In this document: positions 1,832 through 9,734 of the stretch, in pieces
How positions within the stretch are numbered: the stretch's first letter is position 1
Layout of the letters: the number at the start of each line of letters is the position of its first letter
Assembly: GCF_009931435.1 (NCBI RefSeq)
Contig: NZ_CP043414.1
DNA from: Escherichia coli
GTDB lineage: Bacteria; Pseudomonadota; Gammaproteobacteria; Enterobacterales; Enterobacteriaceae
Direction: 5' to 3' (one strand)
Length of the DNA stretch: 64,000 bases
Made by a program: the position numbers and the translations under genes
Notes under the pieces: generated by a model
Told to the model about the DNA's origin: nothing
The model's input: only the letters and a program-made list of their open reading frames with translations
The model's database searches: none

Positions 1832-4508
1832 CGAACCCTTACGTCCCGACCCCGATCGTCTGCTGGAACAAACTGCCGCGCCGCATCGGGGGAAGCTGAA
1901 AGTTTTTTTCGGTGCCTGTGCAGGCGTCGGGAAGACCTGGGCGATGCTGGCAGAAGCCCAACGACTGCGGGCGCAAGGGCTGGATATTGTGGTTGGCGTG
2001 GTTGAAACTCACGGACGGAAAGATACCGCCGCAATGCTGGAAGGGCTGGCTGTTCTGCCGCTAAAACGCCAGGCGTACCGTGGGCGGCATATCAGCGAGT
2101 TTGATCTCGATGCCGCCCTCGCCCGCCGTCCGGCGCTGATCTTAATGGACGAACTGGCGCACAGTAATGCGCCAGGTTCTCGTCATCCTAAACGCTGGCA
2201 GGACATCGAAGAGCTGCTGGAAGCGGGCATTGATGTTTTCACGACCGTCAACGTTCAGCATCTGGAAAGCCTGAACGATGTGGTCAGCGGCGTCACCGGA
2301 ATTCAGGTGCGGGAAACCGTGCCCGATCCCTTTTTTGATGCTGCCGACGACGTAGTGCTGGTGGACTTGCCCCCGGACGATCTGCGTCAACGGCTGAAAG
2401 AAGGCAAAGTCTATATTGCCGGGCAGGCGGAGCGCGCCATTGAACATTTTTTCCGCAAAGGCAATCTGATCGCCCTGCGCGAACTGGCACTGCGCCGTAC
2501 TGCCGATCGCGTAGATGAGCAAATGCGCGCCTGGCGGGGGCATCCTGGCGAAGAGAAAGTCTGGCACACGCGCGACGCGATTCTTTTATGTATTGGGCAT
2601 AACACCGGCAGCGAAAAACTGGTCCGCGCGGCGGCGCGGTTGGCGTCACGGCTGGGGAGCGTCTGGCACGCGGTGTATGTTGAAACCCCTGCCCTGCACC
2701 GCTTACCGGAGAAAAAACGTCGGGCAATTCTCAGCGCCTTACGTCTGGCGCAGGAGCTGGGCGCGGAGACAGCAACACTTTCTGATCCGGCGGAAGAAAA
2801 AGCCGTAGTGCGTTATGCCCGTGAACATAATCTCGGCAAGATTATTCTCGGTCACCCGGCCTCGCGCCGCTGGTGGCGTCGGGAAACGTTTGCTGACCGA
2901 CTGGCGCGCATCGCCCCCGATCTCGATCAGGTGCTGGTCGCGCTTGATGAACCACCCGCCCGCCCGCTTAATAACGCGCCGGATAGCCGCTCTTTTAAAG
3001 ACAAGTGGCGGGTACAGATTCAGGGGTGCGTGGTTGCCGCCGCATTATGTGCCGTTATCACCTTAATTGCCATGCAGTGGCTGATGGCGTTTGATGCCGC
3101 CAACCTGGTGATGCTGTATCTGCTTGGCGTGGTGGTGGTGGCGCTATTTTATGGACGCTGGCCTTCGGTGCTTGCTACCGTCATTAATGTGGTGAGTTTC
3201 GATCTCTTTTTTATCGCCCCACGCGGCACGCTCGCCGTCTCTGATGTGCAGTATCTGCTGACTTTCGCGGTGATGTTAACCGTCGGGCTGGTGATCGGGA
3301 ATCTTACTGCTGGCGTACGTTATCAGGCGCGGGTAGCCCGTTACCGCGAGCAACGCACACGACACTTATATGAAATGTCGAAAGCTCTGGCTGTGGGACG
3401 CAGTCCGCAGGACATCGCCGCCACCAGCGAACAATTTTTTGCTTCCACGTTTCATGCCCGCAGCCAGGTGTTGTTGCCCGATGACAACGGTAAATTGCAG
3501 CCGTTGACACATCCGCAAGGAATGACGCCGTGGGACGATGCCATCGCGCAGTGGAGTTTTGATAAAGGCCTGCCTGCGGGCGCGGGCACCGACACGTTAC
3601 CCGGTGTGCCATACCAGATTTTGCCGTTAAAAAGCGGCGAGAAAACCTACGGGCTGGTGGTGGTGGAACCGGGGAATCTGCGCCAGTTGATGATCCCGGA
3701 ACAGCAACGCCTGCTGGAGACGTTTACGTTGTTAGTCGCCAATGCCCTGGAACGCCTGACGCTGACCGCCAGCGAAGAACAGGCGCGGATGGCAAGCGAA
3801 CGAGAACAGATCCGCAACGCCCTGCTGGCGGCGCTTTCGCATGATTTACGCACGCCGCTTACGGTGCTGTTCGGTCAGGCAGAAATCTTAACGCTCGATC
3901 TGGCAAGCGAAGGATCGCCTCACGCCCGCCAGGCCAGCGAGATTCGTCAGCATGTGCTGAACACGACCCGACTGGTGAATAATCTACTGGATATGGCGCG
4001 AATTCAGTCCGGCGGCTTTAATTTGAAGAAAGAGTGGTTAACGCTGGAAGAAGTGGTCGGCAGCGCGCTGAAAATGCTGGAACCGGGTTTATCCTCGCCC
4101 ATCAATCTTTCTCTGCCAGAACCGCTGACCTTAATCCACGTTGACGGGCCACTCTTTGAACGGGTGCTGATTAATCTGCTGGAGAACGCGGTGAAATACG
4201 CGGGTGCGCAGGCCGAAATTGGTATCGATGCCCACGTTGAGGGCGAAAATCTACAACTGGATGTCTGGGATAACGGCCCCGGTCTTCCGCCAGGTCAGGA
4301 GCAGACGATATTCGATAAGTTTGCTCGTGGAAATAAAGAGTCGGCAGTGCCGGGTGTAGGGCTTGGGCTGGCAATTTGTCGGGCAATTGTGGATGTACAC
4401 GGCGGCACCATTACCGCGTTCAACCGACCGGAAGGTGGTGCCTGTTTTCGTGTTACACTTCCCCAGCAAACTGCCCCTGAACTTGAAGAATTTCATGAGG
4501 ATATGTGA
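1824..4508 (+). CDS. kdpD: sensor histidine kinase KdpD
   Basis: ORF track 1791..4508; start placed at ATG 1824 (MNNEPLRPD...), 894 aa; Walker-like GACAGVGKT, four TM helices, HisKA (SHDLRTPL) and ATPase domain; 8-nt overlap with kdpC. Confidence 0.93.
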
Positions 4509-5182
4509 CAAACGTTCTGATTGTTGAAGATGAACAGGCTATTCGTCGCTTTCTGCGCACGGCGCTGGAGGGTGACGGTATGCGCGTTTTTGAAGCCGAA
4601 ACGCTGCAACGGGGGCTGCTGGAAGCGGCGACTCGTAAGCCAGATTTGATTATTCTCGATCTCGGCCTGCCAGACGGTGATGGGATTGAGTTTATCCGCG
4701 ACCTGCGCCAGTGGAGCGCGGTGCCAGTAATTGTGCTTTCCGCCCGCAGCGAAGAGAGCGACAAAATCGCCGCGCTGGATGCCGGAGCGGATGATTACCT
4801 GAGTAAGCCATTTGGCATTGGTGAATTGCAGGCCCGTCTGCGCGTCGCATTACGCCGCCACTCCGCCACCACCGCGCCCGAGCCGCTGGTGAAATTTTCC
4901 GATGTTACCGTCGATTTAGCTGCCCGCGTGATTCACCGCAGTGAGGAAGAGGTGCATCTCACCCCGATTGAATTCCGCCTGCTGGCGGTGCTACTCAACA
5001 ATGCCGGAAAAGTGCTCACCCAGCGCCAGCTTCTCAACCAGGTGTGGGGACCAAACGCGGTCGAACACAGCCACTATTTGCGTATTTATATGGGGCATCT
5101 GCGACAAAAACTGGAGCAAGATCCCGCCCGCCCTCGCCATTTTATTACTGAAACCGGTATTGGGTATCGGTTTATGCCATGA
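4505..5182 (+). CDS. kdpE: response regulator KdpE
   Basis: ORF track 4505..5182, 225 aa; GTG start overlapping kdpD stop (GTGA); receiver domain plus OmpR-type winged helix. Confidence 0.93.
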   Translation: MTNVLIVEDEQAIRRFLRTALEGDGMRVFEAETLQRGLLEAATRKPDLIILDLGLPDGDGIEFIRDLRQWSAVPVIVLSARSEESDKIAALDAGADDYLSKPFGIGELQARLRVALRRHSATTAPEPLVKFSDVTVDLAARVIHRSEEEVHLTPIEFRLLAVLLNNAGKVLTQRQLLNQVWGPNAVEHSHYLRIYMGHLRQKLEQDPARPRHFITETGIGYRFMP

Positions 5183-5227
5183 ATTATTATTCAATAAATA
5201 CGCTTAACTAATTATTAATTTATTATT

Positions 5228-5270
5228 AAACCTGCCCCGAAAATTATTATTTGGCAGGTTTAATTTCTTA
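5228..5270 (+). terminator. hairpin with large loop followed by T-rich tract downstream of kdpE
   Basis: aaacctgcc ... ggcaggttt inverted repeat then aatttctt; AT-rich context. Confidence 0.4.
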
Positions 5271-5456
5271 ATGAAAATATAACCTACGAAATTGCAACAT
5301 TTAAACAACAAAACAGCATCTAATATGGCGCTATTCATAATTAACGATTTATTATTTGGGGTGTGATCGTTTTTTGTTGATCTTCTTCACAGTTTATAGC
5401 CTTTTCATGGATAGAATAACTCTACCTTCAACTGACACAGCAAAAGGTAAAGGTAA

Positions 5457-5561
5457 ATGGAAAATAATAACCGCTTAATGCCTCATATAAGGCGGACAAC
5501 CCATATCATGAAGTTTGCCCATCGTAATAGTTTTGACTTTCATTTCTTTAATGCCCGTTAG
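5457..5561 (+). CDS. speFL: speF leader peptide SpeFL (34 aa, ornithine-sensing arrest peptide)
   Basis: Not in ORF track (below size cutoff). ATG 5457 to TAG 5559-5561 translates MENNNRLMPHIRRTTHIMKFAHRNSFDFHFFNAR; sits ~310 nt upstream of speF. Confidence 0.85.
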   Translation: MENNNRLMPHIRRTTHIMKFAHRNSFDFHFFNAR

Positions 5562-5871
5562 TCTTCTGACTAAAGGGCACCCCAGCGTACAGGTCTCCCT
5601 GACTTTAAGCATTACAGGTTAATACCTGTATCCCTCGGTGCTCATATACTGCTAACCCTTTTAAACTCTAAATAATTCAAGTCGCAGCACTAGCAACTTG
5701 AAGTATGACGAGTATAGCCAGTTACCGGGCTGGTCTGGGTTATTGCATCTGCAAAAAGCAAACTACTGATTTATTTATCAGCGGTGGAGTTTTGCTTTTT
5801 TTCCGGCGTGATCGATTTCTCCTTTGAGAAATTGAGGACCTGCTATTACCTGAAATAAAGAGATGAACAAA

Positions 5872-8070
5872 ATGTCAGAATTAAAAATTGCCGTTAGTCG
5901 TTCTTGCCCGGATTGTTTTTCCACTCATCGTGCATGCGTGAATATTGACGAAAGTAATTATATTGACGTTGCCGCCATTATTTTATCAGTCAATGATGTT
6001 GAACGTGGAAAACTCGATGAAATAGACGCTACTGGCTATGGCATTCCTGTTTTTATTGCAACGGAAAATGAAGAACGTGTACCAGCAGAATATCTGCCAC
6101 GTATTACTGGTGTCTTCGAGCATTGCGAATCACGGAAAGAATTTTACGGACGTCAGTTAGAAACCGCCGCCAGCCATTATGAAACGCAGCTGCGCCCGCC
6201 CTTCTTCCGCGCACTGGTCGATTATGTCAATCAGGGCAATAGCGCTTTTGACTGCCCGGGTCATCAGGGGGGTGAGTTTTTCCGTCGCCATCCGGCAGGC
6301 AATCAGTTCGTGGAATATTTTGGCGAAATGCTCTTCCGCTCCGACTTGTGTAATGCCGACGTAGCAATGGGCGATCTACTGATTCATGAAGGTGCGCCAT
6401 GCATTGCACAGCAACATGCGGCTAAAGTGTTTAATGCCGATAAAACGTACTTTGTTTTAAACGGCACCTCCTCTTCCAACAAAGTGGTTTTAAACGCCCT
6501 GCTAACACCGGGTGATCTGGTGCTGTTTGACCGCAATAACCATAAGTCTAACCACCACGGGGCCTTGCTACAGGCTGGTGCAACACCGGTTTATCTGGAA
6601 ACAGCACGTAACCCGTATGGTTTTATCGGTGGTATTGATGCGCACTGCTTCGAAGAAAGTTATCTGCGTGAACTGATTAGAGAAGTTGCACCGCAACGGG
6701 CAAAAGAGGCGCGTCCGTTCCGCCTCGCTGTGATTCAGTTAGGCACCTACGACGGTACTATTTATAACGCCCGCCAGGTGGTGGATAAAATCGGTCATCT
6801 GTGTGACTACATCCTGTTTGACTCAGCATGGGTCGGCTATGAACAGTTTATTCCGATGATGGCGGACTGTTCGCCGCTGCTACTGGAGCTTAATGAGAAC
6901 GATCCGGGTATTCTGGTTACGCAATCTGTACATAAGCAGCAGGCTGGTTTTTCTCAGACTTCACAAATTCATAAAAAAGACAGCCATATCAAAGGGCAAC
7001 AGCGTTATGTACCGCACAAACGCATGAACAACGCCTTTATGATGCACGCCTCCACCAGCCCGTTCTATCCGCTGTTTGCCGCACTGGATATTAACGCCAA
7101 AATGCATGAAGGTGTCAGCGGTCGTAATATGTGGATGGATTGTGTGGTTAACGGTATTAATGCCCGCAAATTGATCCTCGATAACTGCCAGCACATTCGT
7201 CCGTTCGTTCCTGAACTGGTGGATGGTAAACCCTGGCAATCGTATGAAACAGCGCAAATTGCGGTTGATCTGCGCTTCTTTAAATTTGTACCCGGTGAGC
7301 ACTGGCATTCTTTTGAAGGTTACGCAGAGAATCAATACTTTGTCGATCCGTGCAAACTGTTGCTGACAACCCCAGGTATTGATGCACGTAACGGCGAATA
7401 CGAAGCGTTCGGTGTACCCGCGACGATTCTTGCTAACTTCCTGCGCGAAAATGGCGTAGTGCCGGAAAAATGCGATCTTAACTCCATCCTCTTCCTGCTG
7501 ACTCCGGCAGAAGATATGGCCAAACTGCAGCAACTTGTTGCCCTGCTGGTACGCTTCGAAAAACTACTGGAAGCTGATGCGCCTCTGGCGGAAGTATTGC
7601 CTTCCATCTACAAACAGCATGAAGAGCGCTACGCCGGTTATACCCTGCGTCAGTTGTGCCAGGAAATGCATGATTTGTATGCCCGTCACAACGTGAAACA
7701 ACTGCAAAAAGAGATGTTCCGTAAGGAACACTTCCCACGCGTCAGCATGAATCCACAGGAAGCCAACTATGCCTACTTACGCGGTGAAGTGGAATTGGTT
7801 CGTCTGCCGGATGCAGAAGGCCGTATCGCAGCCGAAGGTGCGCTTCCTTATCCTCCGGGTGTGCTGTGTGTTGTTCCGGGTGAAATCTGGGGTGGTGCTG
7901 TTCTGCGTTACTTCAGCGCTCTGGAAGAAGGGATCAACCTGCTGCCAGGTTTTGCACCGGAGCTGCAGGGTGTCTATATCGAAGAACATGATGGTCGTAA
8001 GCAAGTTTGGTGCTATGTCATCAAGCCTCGTGATGCGCAAAGCACCCTGTTGAAAGGGGAAAAATTATGA
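5872..8070 (+). CDS. speF: inducible ornithine decarboxylase
   Basis: ORF track 5863..8070; start placed at ATG 5872 (MSELKIAV...) with aaagag 9 nt upstream, 732 aa; PLP-dependent Orn/Lys/Arg decarboxylase fold-type I. Confidence 0.93.
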   Translation: MSELKIAVSRSCPDCFSTHRACVNIDESNYIDVAAIILSVNDVERGKLDEIDATGYGIPVFIATENEERVPAEYLPRITGVFEHCESRKEFYGRQLETAASHYETQLRPPFFRALVDYVNQGNSAFDCPGHQGGEFFRRHPAGNQFVEYFGEMLFRSDLCNADVAMGDLLIHEGAPCIAQQHAAKVFNADKTYFVLNGTSSSNKVVLNALLTPGDLVLFDRNNHKSNHHGALLQAGATPVYLETARNPYGFIGGIDAHCFEESYLRELIREVAPQRAKEARPFRLAVIQLGTYDGTIYNARQVVDKIGHLCDYILFDSAWVGYEQFIPMMADCSPLLLELNENDPGILVTQSVHKQQAGFSQTSQIHKKDSHIKGQQRYVPHKRMNNAFMMHASTSPFYPLFAALDINAKMHEGVSGRNMWMDCVVNGINARKLILDNCQHIRPFVPELVDGKPWQSYETAQIAVDLRFFKFVPGEHWHSFEGYAENQYFVDPCKLLLTTPGIDARNGEYEAFGVPATILANFLRENGVVPEKCDLNSILFLLTPAEDMAKLQQLVALLVRFEKLLEADAPLAEVLPSIYKQHEERYAGYTLRQLCQEMHDLYARHNVKQLQKEMFRKEHFPRVSMNPQEANYAYLRGEVELVRLPDAEGRIAAEGALPYPPGVLCVVPGEIWGGAVLRYFSALEEGINLLPGFAPELQGVYIEEHDGRKQVWCYVIKPRDAQSTLLKGEKL

Positions 8071-9386
8071 GTCAGGCTAAATCGAACAAAATGGGCGTCG
8101 TTCAGTTAACCATACTGACGATGGTCAACATGATGGGCTCCGGCATCATCATGCTGCCGACAAAGCTTGCCGAAGTTGGGACAATCTCAATAATCTCCTG
8201 GTTGGTGACAGCCGTAGGCTCAATGGCGCTGGCATGGGCATTCGCAAAATGCGGTATGTTCAGCCGTAAATCAGGCGGTATGGGCGGTTATGCCGAGTAT
8301 GCTTTCGGTAAATCCGGTAACTTTATGGCGAACTATACCTACGGCGTCTCGCTGCTGATTGCTAACGTGGCGATTGCTATTTCGGCAGTTGGTTACGGCA
8401 CCGAACTGCTCGGCGCGAGTTTGTCACCAGTGCAGATTGGTCTGGCAACCATCGGAGTGCTGTGGATTTGTACCGTGGCTAACTTTGGTGGTGCGCGCAT
8501 TACCGGGCAAATCAGTAGCATTACCGTGTGGGGGGTCATTATTCCGGTGGTAGGCCTGTGCGTTATCGGCTGGTTCTGGTTTAGCCCGACACTTTACGTT
8601 GATTCCTGGAATCCGCATCATGCACCGTTCTTCAGTGCGGTAGGTTCTTCCATCGCCATGACGCTGTGGGCTTTTCTTGGTCTGGAGTCTGCGTGTGCGA
8701 ATACTGATGTAGTGGAAAACCCGGAACGTAATGTGCCAATCGCGGTACTCGGCGGTACGTTAGGTGCGGCGGTGATTTATATCGTCTCCACCAACGTGAT
8801 TGCCGGGATTGTGCCCAATATGGAGCTGGCAAATTCAACGGCACCATTTGGTCTGGCCTTCGCGCAAATGTTCACACCGGAAGTGGGTAAAGTCATTATG
8901 GCGCTGATGGTGATGTCCTGCTGCGGTTCACTGCTTGGCTGGCAGTTCACCATTGCCCAGGTGTTTAAATCTTCATCTGATGAAGGCTACTTCCCTAAAA
9001 TTTTCTCCCGTGTAACCAAAGTGGATGCACCGGTTCAGGGGATGTTGACCATTGTGATTATTCAGAGTGGATTGGCACTGATGACCATTAGCCCGTCACT
9101 GAACAGCCAGTTCAACGTGCTGGTTAACCTGGCCGTGGTGACCAATATCATTCCGTATATCCTGTCGATGGCGGCATTAGTCATTATTCAGAAGGTCGCC
9201 AATGTGCCACCATCAAAAGCGAAAGTAGCAAACTTTGTTGCCTTTGTTGGTGCGATGTACAGTTTCTATGCGCTGTACTCATCCGGGGAAGAAGCCATGC
9301 TGTACGGTTCCATCGTGACTTTCCTTGGTTGGACACTGTATGGTCTGGTATCACCACGCTTTGAACTGAAAAACAAACACGGTTAA
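8067..9386 (+). CDS. potE: putrescine-ornithine antiporter
   Basis: ORF track 8067..9386, 439 aa, 12 predicted TM segments, APC-family transporter; ATGA overlap with speF stop. Confidence 0.95.
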   Translation: MSQAKSNKMGVVQLTILTMVNMMGSGIIMLPTKLAEVGTISIISWLVTAVGSMALAWAFAKCGMFSRKSGGMGGYAEYAFGKSGNFMANYTYGVSLLIANVAIAISAVGYGTELLGASLSPVQIGLATIGVLWICTVANFGGARITGQISSITVWGVIIPVVGLCVIGWFWFSPTLYVDSWNPHHAPFFSAVGSSIAMTLWAFLGLESACANTDVVENPERNVPIAVLGGTLGAAVIYIVSTNVIAGIVPNMELANSTAPFGLAFAQMFTPEVGKVIMALMVMSCCGSLLGWQFTIAQVFKSSSDEGYFPKIFSRVTKVDAPVQGMLTIVIIQSGLALMTISPSLNSQFNVLVNLAVVTNIIPYILSMAALVIIQKVANVPPSKAKVANFVAFVGAMYSFYALYSSGEEAMLYGSIVTFLGWTLYGLVSPRFELKNKHG

Positions 9387-9467: not shown

Positions 9468-9610
9468 GCAGGTGTAGGGTCCAAACGCGGTCGAACACAG
9501 CAACTATTTGCGTAATTATATGAGGCATTTGCGACAAAAACTGGAACAGGATCTCGTCCGCCCCGCCATTTCATTACTGAAACCGGTATTGGGTATCGGT
9601 TTATGCTTTG
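9468..9610 (+). repeat. degenerate direct copy (~90% identity) of the last ~143 bp of kdpE (5038..5182), non-coding (premature TAG)
   Basis: By-eye alignment: caggtgtagggtccaaacgcggtcgaacacag...gaaaccggtattgggtatcggtttatgctttga versus kdpE 3' end caggtgtggggaccaaacgcggtcgaacacag...gaaaccggtattgggtatcggtttatgccatga; one 1-nt indel. Confidence 0.85.
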
Positions 9611-9734
9611 AAAAAAGTGGCAATGTATGGATAAAGTCATTTTTTATTCAAATATAAGGAACTTAATATTTAAAAAATGTCCCATACAATGCCTCATCAT
9701 AAATGACACCGTAGCACACAAGGAGCAAGTAGCG

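Follow-up and report, generated by a model that had tools for sequence, protein, structure and literature searches.

A 34-codon open reading frame (ORF) located between kdpE and speF in the window (i.e., the whole 64,000-nucleotide stretch of Escherichia coli DNA that was analyzed) is almost certainly speFL, the translated leader that opens the speFL-speF-potE operon. The genes and sequence elements of this region are listed with their coordinates in Table 1. Comparison with the ORF list and its translation indicated that the ORF and its peptide were exactly as claimed in the initial annotation, and the placement of the ORF in the kdpE-speF spacer was borne out by profile matches of both flanking genes. 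This spacer is 689 bases long, and the UAG stop of speFL within it (positions 5559-5561) is followed by 310 nt of leader before the speF start at 5872, with potE next. ORF tracks built with a length cut-off overlook a gene of this size.

Table 1. Genes and sequence elements in and around the speFL-speF-potE region of the window.
Feature	Positions	Strand	Description and basis
kdpE	4505..5182	+	NF007820, 487 bits
Box TTGATCTTCTTCAC, of the form TTGAT-N4-(A/T)TCAC	5377..5390	+	Conserved in a divergent spacer, in the window and K-12 and in more than 70 species
Predicted -10 hexamer TAGAAT	5412..5417	+	TA(G/A)AAT in nearly all aligned species
Shine-Dalgarno-like AAGGTAAAGGT	5444..5454	+	Directly 5' of the speFL AUG; read from sequence
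speFL	5457..5561	+	34 codons, ATG to TAG, encoding MENNNRLMPHIRRTTHIMKFAHRNSFDFHFFNAR; ORF list and translation
C-rich, G-poor tract, candidate rut region	5460..5700	+	Overlaps speFL in its 3' part and reaches ~140 nt beyond it; composition
speFL codons 12-13, AGG CGG	5490..5495	+	Consecutive Arg codons; read from sequence
speFL codons 28-32, UUCAUUUCUUUA	5539..5550	+	Predicted partner of 5856-5867
Stop-codon hairpin UGCCCGUUAGUC-UUCU-GACUAAAGGGCA	5552..5579	+	Includes codon 34 and UAG; local fold -16.4 kcal/mol
Small hairpin ACAGGU-UAAU-ACCUGU	5614..5629	+	Stem ACAGG/CCTGT retained in 12 aligned leaders
Hairpin UUCAAGUCGCAGCACUAGCAACUUGAA	5676..5702	+	10-pair inverted repeat within a ~51-nt segment (~5661-5711)
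speF ribosome-binding region, UAAAGAGAUGAA	5856..5867	+	Predicted partner of 5539-5550
speF, inducible ornithine decarboxylase	ORF from 5863; RefSeq-type start 5872..8070	+	732 codons; TIGR04301, 1436 bits (cut-off 1310)
potE, putrescine-ornithine antiporter	8067..9386	+	Second operon gene; NF007938, 856 bits; TIGR04299, 850 bits

The identity of the peptide was readily established from its sequence. An end-to-end alignment with the SpeFL chain of PDB entries 6TBV and 6TC3 (MENNSRTMPHIRRTTHIMKFAHRNSFDFHFFNAR), a comparison with published SpeFL of the kind that the initial annotation had proposed, gave identity at 32 of 34 residues (E = 1.7e-18), the sole differences being S5N and T7L. The Asn-Asn-Asn-Arg-Leu stretch pointed out near the N-terminus was likewise confirmed, and differs (NNNRL here versus NNSRT in K-12 and the PDB chain) at just these two residues. 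The peptide also matched the Pfam SpeFL leader peptide family PF10940 (27.9 bits, E = 2.1e-6, against a cut-off of 25), and the exact sequence is RefSeq WP_001312672.1, named "leader peptide SpeFL". This protein is annotated in a strain with a kdpE-speF spacer 100% identical to that of the window and also in O157:H7 and other RefSeq E. coli, each confirmed by translation, and the exact peptide was present on at least 1000 contigs of the protein collection under names that included "leader peptide SpeFL [Shigella sonnei]". The K-12 orthologue, b4803, occupies the same position. The claimed match to the ornithine-sensing arrest leader was thus sustained by structural, Pfam and RefSeq sequences alike. 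An NCBIfam HMM scan of the peptide gave no match, so that the annotation rests on Pfam and sequence identity, and SpeFL is evidently named at NCBI by another route. As SpeFL has already been described, is in Pfam and is annotated in RefSeq with this exact sequence, the gene is not new.

The size of the ORF is not significant in itself, since several further ORFs of 23-45 codons were noted on both strands of the same spacer. Short ORFs being this frequent, the frame could be viewed as a chance one in an AT-rich spacer, untranslated or without function; what places speFL beyond chance is homology, including the match to the PDB chain, together with conservation. According to the initial annotation, a lack of the ORF in related genomes would have told against its identity. 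In a species scan performed with the first 250 residues of the window SpeF against one genome per species, 80 speF-like loci were obtained and a SpeFL-like ORF was noted upstream on the same strand in 76 of them, with its stop approximately 200-500 nt before the SpeF match except for a Yersinia locus, where the distance was 98 nt. Downstream potE was detected in 74 of the 76 ORF-bearing loci, the other two being short contigs that ended before potE. Thus, every speF-potE locus (74 of 74) carried the ORF, while the four loci without the ORF were also without potE and presumably represent the constitutive paralogue speC.

No stop codon interrupted the speFL frame in any of 69 distinct orthologous ORFs; neither of the other two sense frames was open in a single one of them, and even the best antisense frame was open in only 43. 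Averaged over sequence pairs, variability was 0.14, 0.09 and 0.41 at the first, second and third codon positions, respectively (i.e., three to four times as high at the third position as at the others), and mean pN/pS was approximately 0.12. A similar pattern was evident from direct comparison of the window with K-12 speFL, where 14 nucleotide differences changed 12 codons, 10 of them synonymously and 2 (codons 5 and 7) by replacement (pS 0.59, pN 0.04), and where residues 8-34 were identical despite nine synonymous changes in that part of the gene. An AAGG/GGA motif was retained at the Shine-Dalgarno position of speFL in the species alignment. Judged from aligned sequences, the substitution pattern of the ORF is that of a peptide that is translated and maintained by purifying selection, by which the chance-ORF reading, to which almost no probability attaches, appears already refuted.

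It is also very improbable that the functional gene of this region is one of two other small ORFs that overlap speFL, namely an antisense ORF of 45 codons (5475-5612, minus strand) or a RefSeq coding sequence of 43-44 codons (approximately 5347-5478), although both are open in the window and the latter is annotated in many genomes of the window haplotype. The frame opposite speFL was open in just 43 of the 69 orthologues. The RefSeq coding sequence goes by the label "TonB-dependent receptor" or "hypothetical protein" and runs, in another frame, across the predicted promoter and into the start of speFL. No match for it was obtained in Pfam or NCBIfam; it spans conserved promoter elements and is unannotated in K-12-type genomes, where the corresponding stretch is approximately 70% identical; this mini-CDS is probably a spurious call.

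Having speFL as the functional ORF, the window can be compared with published models of the leader. Ornithine-dependent arrest, the HIRRXXH motif and structures have been reported for K-12 SpeFL by Herrero del Valle et al. (bioRxiv 10.1101/604074), whose model has ornithine captured by 23S rRNA and the HIRRXXH loop, RF1 blocked at UAG, and ribosomes masking a rut site placed so as to overlap speFL. Relief of Rho-dependent termination before speF by translation of the ORF has been described both for K-12 (10.1101/604074) and for Salmonella (Ben-Zvi et al., 2019, PMC6386406). Codons 12-13 are called rare in both papers; these Arg codons slow ribosomes, so that rut is exposed and Rho loads at low ornithine (10.1101/604074), and the same codons report arginine supply in Salmonella (PMC6386406). 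In Salmonella, Rho-dependent termination occurs just downstream of a hairpin that contains the 3' end of the ORF (orf34), and an inhibitory helix that sequesters the speF ribosome-binding site and is opened by translation was validated by mutation (PMC6386406).

Mutational work in vitro has identified residues without which arrest is lost or severely weakened (10.1101/604074), and all of them (H10, I11, R12, R13, H16, F26, F28, F30 and F31) are present in the window peptide, in which HIRRTTH occupies residues 10-16 and Phe is found at 20, 26, 28, 30 and 31, the positions that make up the hydrophobic core of the effector domain. Residues H10, I11, R12, R13, H16, M18, R23, F26 and F28 were invariant in 71 peptides of 34 residues, the window counted, while position 7 was the most variable (11 different residues) and position 5 was N or S in all but one. 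Of the 76 orthologues, 52 had AGG as codon 12 and a further 21 had AGA, CGA or CGG there. The initial annotation had suggested a variable N-terminal part and a conserved C-terminal arrest segment. This holds within the species to the extent that residues 8-34 are identical in two common E. coli forms; across genera, the C-terminal half also varies, at positions 19-21, 24-25, 27, 29-30 and 33-34. Other natural variants were noted in the protein collection. A common E. coli variant beginning MENNSRTMPHIRRKTH (T14K, at an X position of HIRRXXH) occurred on at least 1000 contigs and another, beginning MENNNRKMPHIRRVTH (L7K and T14V, the latter also at an X position of HIRRXXH), on 593 contigs, and rarer variants altered essential residues (e.g., R13L and F28L).

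At the RNA level, the predicted hairpin around the speFL stop codon corresponds to the published RNA polymerase pause hairpin. When 47 Enterobacteriaceae sequences were aligned, standard pairs filled 84% of the pair cells of this hairpin, versus 15-43% with slid partners. Compensatory changes were found in four cells only, and with so few of them no covariation support is claimed; moreover, the conservation of the hairpin is not independent evidence since its 5' arm is also coding sequence. The hairpin is thus conserved in Enterobacteriaceae by alignment and unproven by covariation. No hairpin was present at the speFL stop in loci of Hafnia, Buttiauxella, Serratia and the Proteus group, in which a C-rich tract directly followed the stop.

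In the window, GC skew was negative in nearly every 60-nt window of 5460-5700 and reached -0.52 at 5620-5679, a composition that makes this stretch a candidate rut region. The minimum-free-energy fold of the 432-nt leader included a predicted long-range helix of 12 bp between codons 28-32 of speFL (5539-5550) and the speF ribosome-binding region (5856-5867), in which AAATAAAGAGATGAA was nearly invariant among 12 aligned leaders. The predicted energy of this duplex was -14.9 kcal/mol in the window versus -8.9 kcal/mol in K-12. The loop of the small hairpin at 5614-5629 carried an insertion of approximately 120 nt in a Citrobacter locus (L004) and in Salmonella arizonae (L015). The ~51-nt segment that contains the last hairpin of the leader (approximately 5661-5711) was present in the Escherichia-type leader, where it was common to E. 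albertii (L008) and strain E69 (L007) with stem-preserving changes, and was absent from K-12 and from aligned Citrobacter-type leaders. A minus-strand "terminator" reported by a generic terminator scan proved to be this hairpin (5676-5702) read backwards.

Searches with Rfam release 15 gave no family at gathering score within 4500-6500. Three weak sub-threshold matches, to STnc370, ncr1175 and isrH, were obtained in the same interval. Those to STnc370 (5193-5269, 27 versus 54) and isrH (5660-5716, 18 bits versus 45) were treated as chance or generic hairpin similarity; the isrH match overlaps the 5661-5711 module, and that to STnc370 is accounted for by a hairpin just 3' of kdpE (AAACCUGCC-N16-GGCAGGUUU followed by AAUUUCUU, at 5228-5261), which probably acts as intrinsic terminator for the kdp operon.

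The promoter of the operon was predicted from conservation. In the spacer between kdpE and speFL, the window and K-12 have diverged strongly, and the two blocks that survive, also kept in more than 70 species, are the TTGAT-N4-(A/T)TCAC box and, approximately 22 nt downstream of it, the -10 hexamer. The Hafnia version of the box is a perfect palindrome, GTGATAAATATCAC. The box is a predicted FNR/CRP-type activator site for the speFL-speF-potE promoter, and its spacing from the -10 hexamer resembles that of a class II promoter with an activator of the FNR/CRP family. Transcription would then start at approximately 5424, about 33 nt before the AUG, which is consistent with the Salmonella start mapped 31 nt before the orf34 AUG (PMC6386406). 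A generic sigma-70 scan did not report the site at 5412-5417, which was missed for want of a good -35 element. The conserved box is a mildly new side observation.

Every sequence element of the published model was present in the window, including the HIRRTTH motif, the Phe residues, AGG-CGG, UAG, the predicted hairpin, the C-rich tract and the predicted helix, which suggests that the window holds a complete, apparently functional speFL-speF-potE unit. By homology with the K-12 and Salmonella alleles on which the model was built, transcription of the window allele would start approximately 33 nt upstream of the speFL AUG, the ribosome translating speFL would slow at the rare AGG-CGG codons, and RNA polymerase would pause at the hairpin containing the UAG stop. 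At low ornithine, the ribosome would terminate and leave, exposing the C-rich rut region, and Rho would terminate transcription just past the hairpin, with a predicted 3' end at approximately 5580-5585. At high ornithine, the HIRRTTH loop of the nascent peptide would hold one ornithine molecule against 23S rRNA, with compaction of the Phe-rich C-terminal domain and a block of RF1 at UAG. Stalled and queued ribosomes would then cover the rut region, and the stalled ribosome would prevent codons 28-32 of speFL from pairing with the speF Shine-Dalgarno sequence, allowing speF and potE to be transcribed and translated. Stalling, ornithine binding and Rho dependence are in this way carried over to the window allele by homology with the characterized ones.

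The speF gene of the window is intact, with no internal stop, and the RefSeq start in a near-identical strain is the ATG at 5872. Disrupted copies were noted elsewhere. In strain 2020CK-00188, which has a 100% identical spacer, speF (L001, 6690-8888) differs at three bases, one of which (G to A at window position 7236) introduces a stop at codon 455, and speF is also disrupted in the K-12-type strain ABW_A33. A copy of approximately 145 bases of the kdpE 3' end (5039-5183) was found downstream of potE at 9469-9612. This copy is approximately 91% identical to the K-12 kdpE 3' end; it bears the name ybfI in K-12, and RefSeq lists it as a partial winged-helix pseudogene. Because of it, speFL-speF-potE has a direct repeat on either side, the kind of arrangement that insertion of the operon at the kdpE end would leave.

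The presence of two deeply divergent leader haplotypes in E. coli, a mildly new point, was evident from a search of 5426 complete E. coli genomes with a 201-base query that covered speFL and the start of the leader. Matches were obtained in 5043 genomes, with identities of at least 90% in 3341 and of 80-90% in 1702, while 383 gave no match. Four genomes sampled from the former group all encoded the exact window peptide, and two sampled from the latter encoded the K-12 peptide or its T14K variant. NNNRL is thus the majority E. coli form, in agreement with the consensus of other Enterobacteriaceae, and the K-12 NNSRT the minority one. An initial megablast reading of 2075 genomes without the region was discarded, since a more sensitive search indicated that most of these carry the divergent K-12-type haplotype. 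In one of the 383 genomes without a match, that of a laboratory strain, an IS1-associated loss of speFL-speF-potE was seen.

Identity between the window and K-12, determined in 200-base windows, was approximately 96-97% in kdpD, 68-88% from the kdpE 3' end to approximately 5935, as low as 78% again at 5936-6135, 86-92% over 6136-6735, and mostly 92-100% deeper in speF and in potE. The divergent haplotype segment corresponded to 5138-6335 of the window, extending from the kdpE 3' end across speFL and the leader and ending a few hundred bases inside speF. The spacer and leader of the window were closest to those of E. albertii (83-85%), whereas the K-12 version was closest to Citrobacter/Raoultella-type leaders (approximately 82%), and the K-12 N-terminus, MENNSRT, is that found in Citrobacter. 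The structurally characterized SpeFL is thus the minority E. coli allele, possibly one that was imported, and the divergence suggests either an old import or a balanced polymorphism. One further contig of K-12 type, a 2.2-kb contig labeled as a Collinsella sp. metagenome-assembled genome (L012, JAIJJM010000551.1), was 100% identical to the K-12 speFL-speF segments compared (595 nt of spacer and leader and the first 529 nt of speF) and almost certainly represents E. coli contamination of the Collinsella bin.

The window locus resembles that of K-12 SpeFL in its location between kdpE and speF-potE, its 34 codons, its UAG stop and its AGG-CGG at codons 12-13, as well as in sharing 32 of 34 residues, HIRRTTH, all five Phe residues of the effector domain and the stop-codon hairpin. 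It differs from K-12 in its upstream spacer, which is approximately 68-75% identical, in the 201-nt leader query, which is approximately 17% different, and in the length of the speFL-speF leader, which is 310 nt as opposed to 257 nt, the window having the 51-nt hairpin-bearing insertion.

These differences raise the possibility, which is somewhat doubtful, that the ORF is indeed speFL but that the Escherichia-type leader is quantitatively different from that of K-12, with a greater weight of arginine-codon pausing or RNA refolding, as in the Salmonella model, or with a different ornithine threshold. Candidate causes would be stronger pairing of the speF ribosome-binding site (predicted anti-SD duplex of -14.9 versus -8.9 kcal/mol), the extra hairpin module (5676-5702) in a leader for which the query is only approximately 83% identical to K-12-type genomes, and N5/L7, as deletion of residues 1-7 abolishes K-12 SpeFL arrest (10.1101/604074) and the N-terminal hairpin thereby matters. 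However, residues 5 and 7 look tolerant in being the most variable of the family and are not named in the text of 10.1101/604074, all tested essential residues and the RNA elements of the model are kept, and the energy differences are predictions. The wider proposition, that E. coli maintains two ancient, divergent speFL control regions, an Escherichia type with N5/L7 and the extra hairpin module and a Citrobacter-like K-12 type with S5/T7 and a shorter leader, is offered tentatively and is considered unlikely as it stands.

With Salmonella Typhimurium orf34 (PMC6386406), the window ORF shares its 34 codons near the transcription start, the consecutive AGG-CGG, a hairpin at the ORF end (just after which Rho-dependent termination occurs in Salmonella) and a long-range helix to the speF ribosome-binding site, which in the window is a predicted one. 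The Salmonella leader, by contrast, is longer, with the speF AUG at +516, and the published stop of orf34 is UGA as opposed to UAG in the window. In the S. arizonae locus, 378 nt separate the ORF from speF, the insertion of approximately 120 nt lying where the window has the small hairpin loop, and the peptide carries F7 and M19. TnaC, the leader peptide of tnaCAB, is similar to SpeFL in that nascent peptide and free amino acid together prevent release at the stop codon, leaving a stalled ribosome that covers rut and thereby averts Rho-dependent termination (10.1101/604074), but the two have no sequence relationship and the TnaC ligand is tryptophan, at another tunnel site, so that TnaC is a functional analogue and not a family member. 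MdtU, encoded by the upstream ORF of mdtJI (Adams et al., 2021, PMC7815308), is likewise a polyamine-related leader ORF for which stalling control of premature Rho-dependent termination was proposed; its peptide is unrelated, its effector is spermidine and its mechanism is only proposed.

SpeFL provides a textbook-grade example of metabolite sensing shared between a nascent peptide and the ribosome. The common E. coli allele is that of the window and not the K-12 allele of the structures, and all required residues are unchanged in it. The strong divergence of the leader within the species offers a natural experiment on how much leader RNA is needed. If putrescine production answered to different thresholds or inputs (ornithine, arginine, pH or anaerobiosis) under the two haplotypes, then the mechanistic work would describe only the minority, possibly imported allele and, if this is true, the majority allele would be a natural regulatory variant relevant to gut colonization or acid stress.
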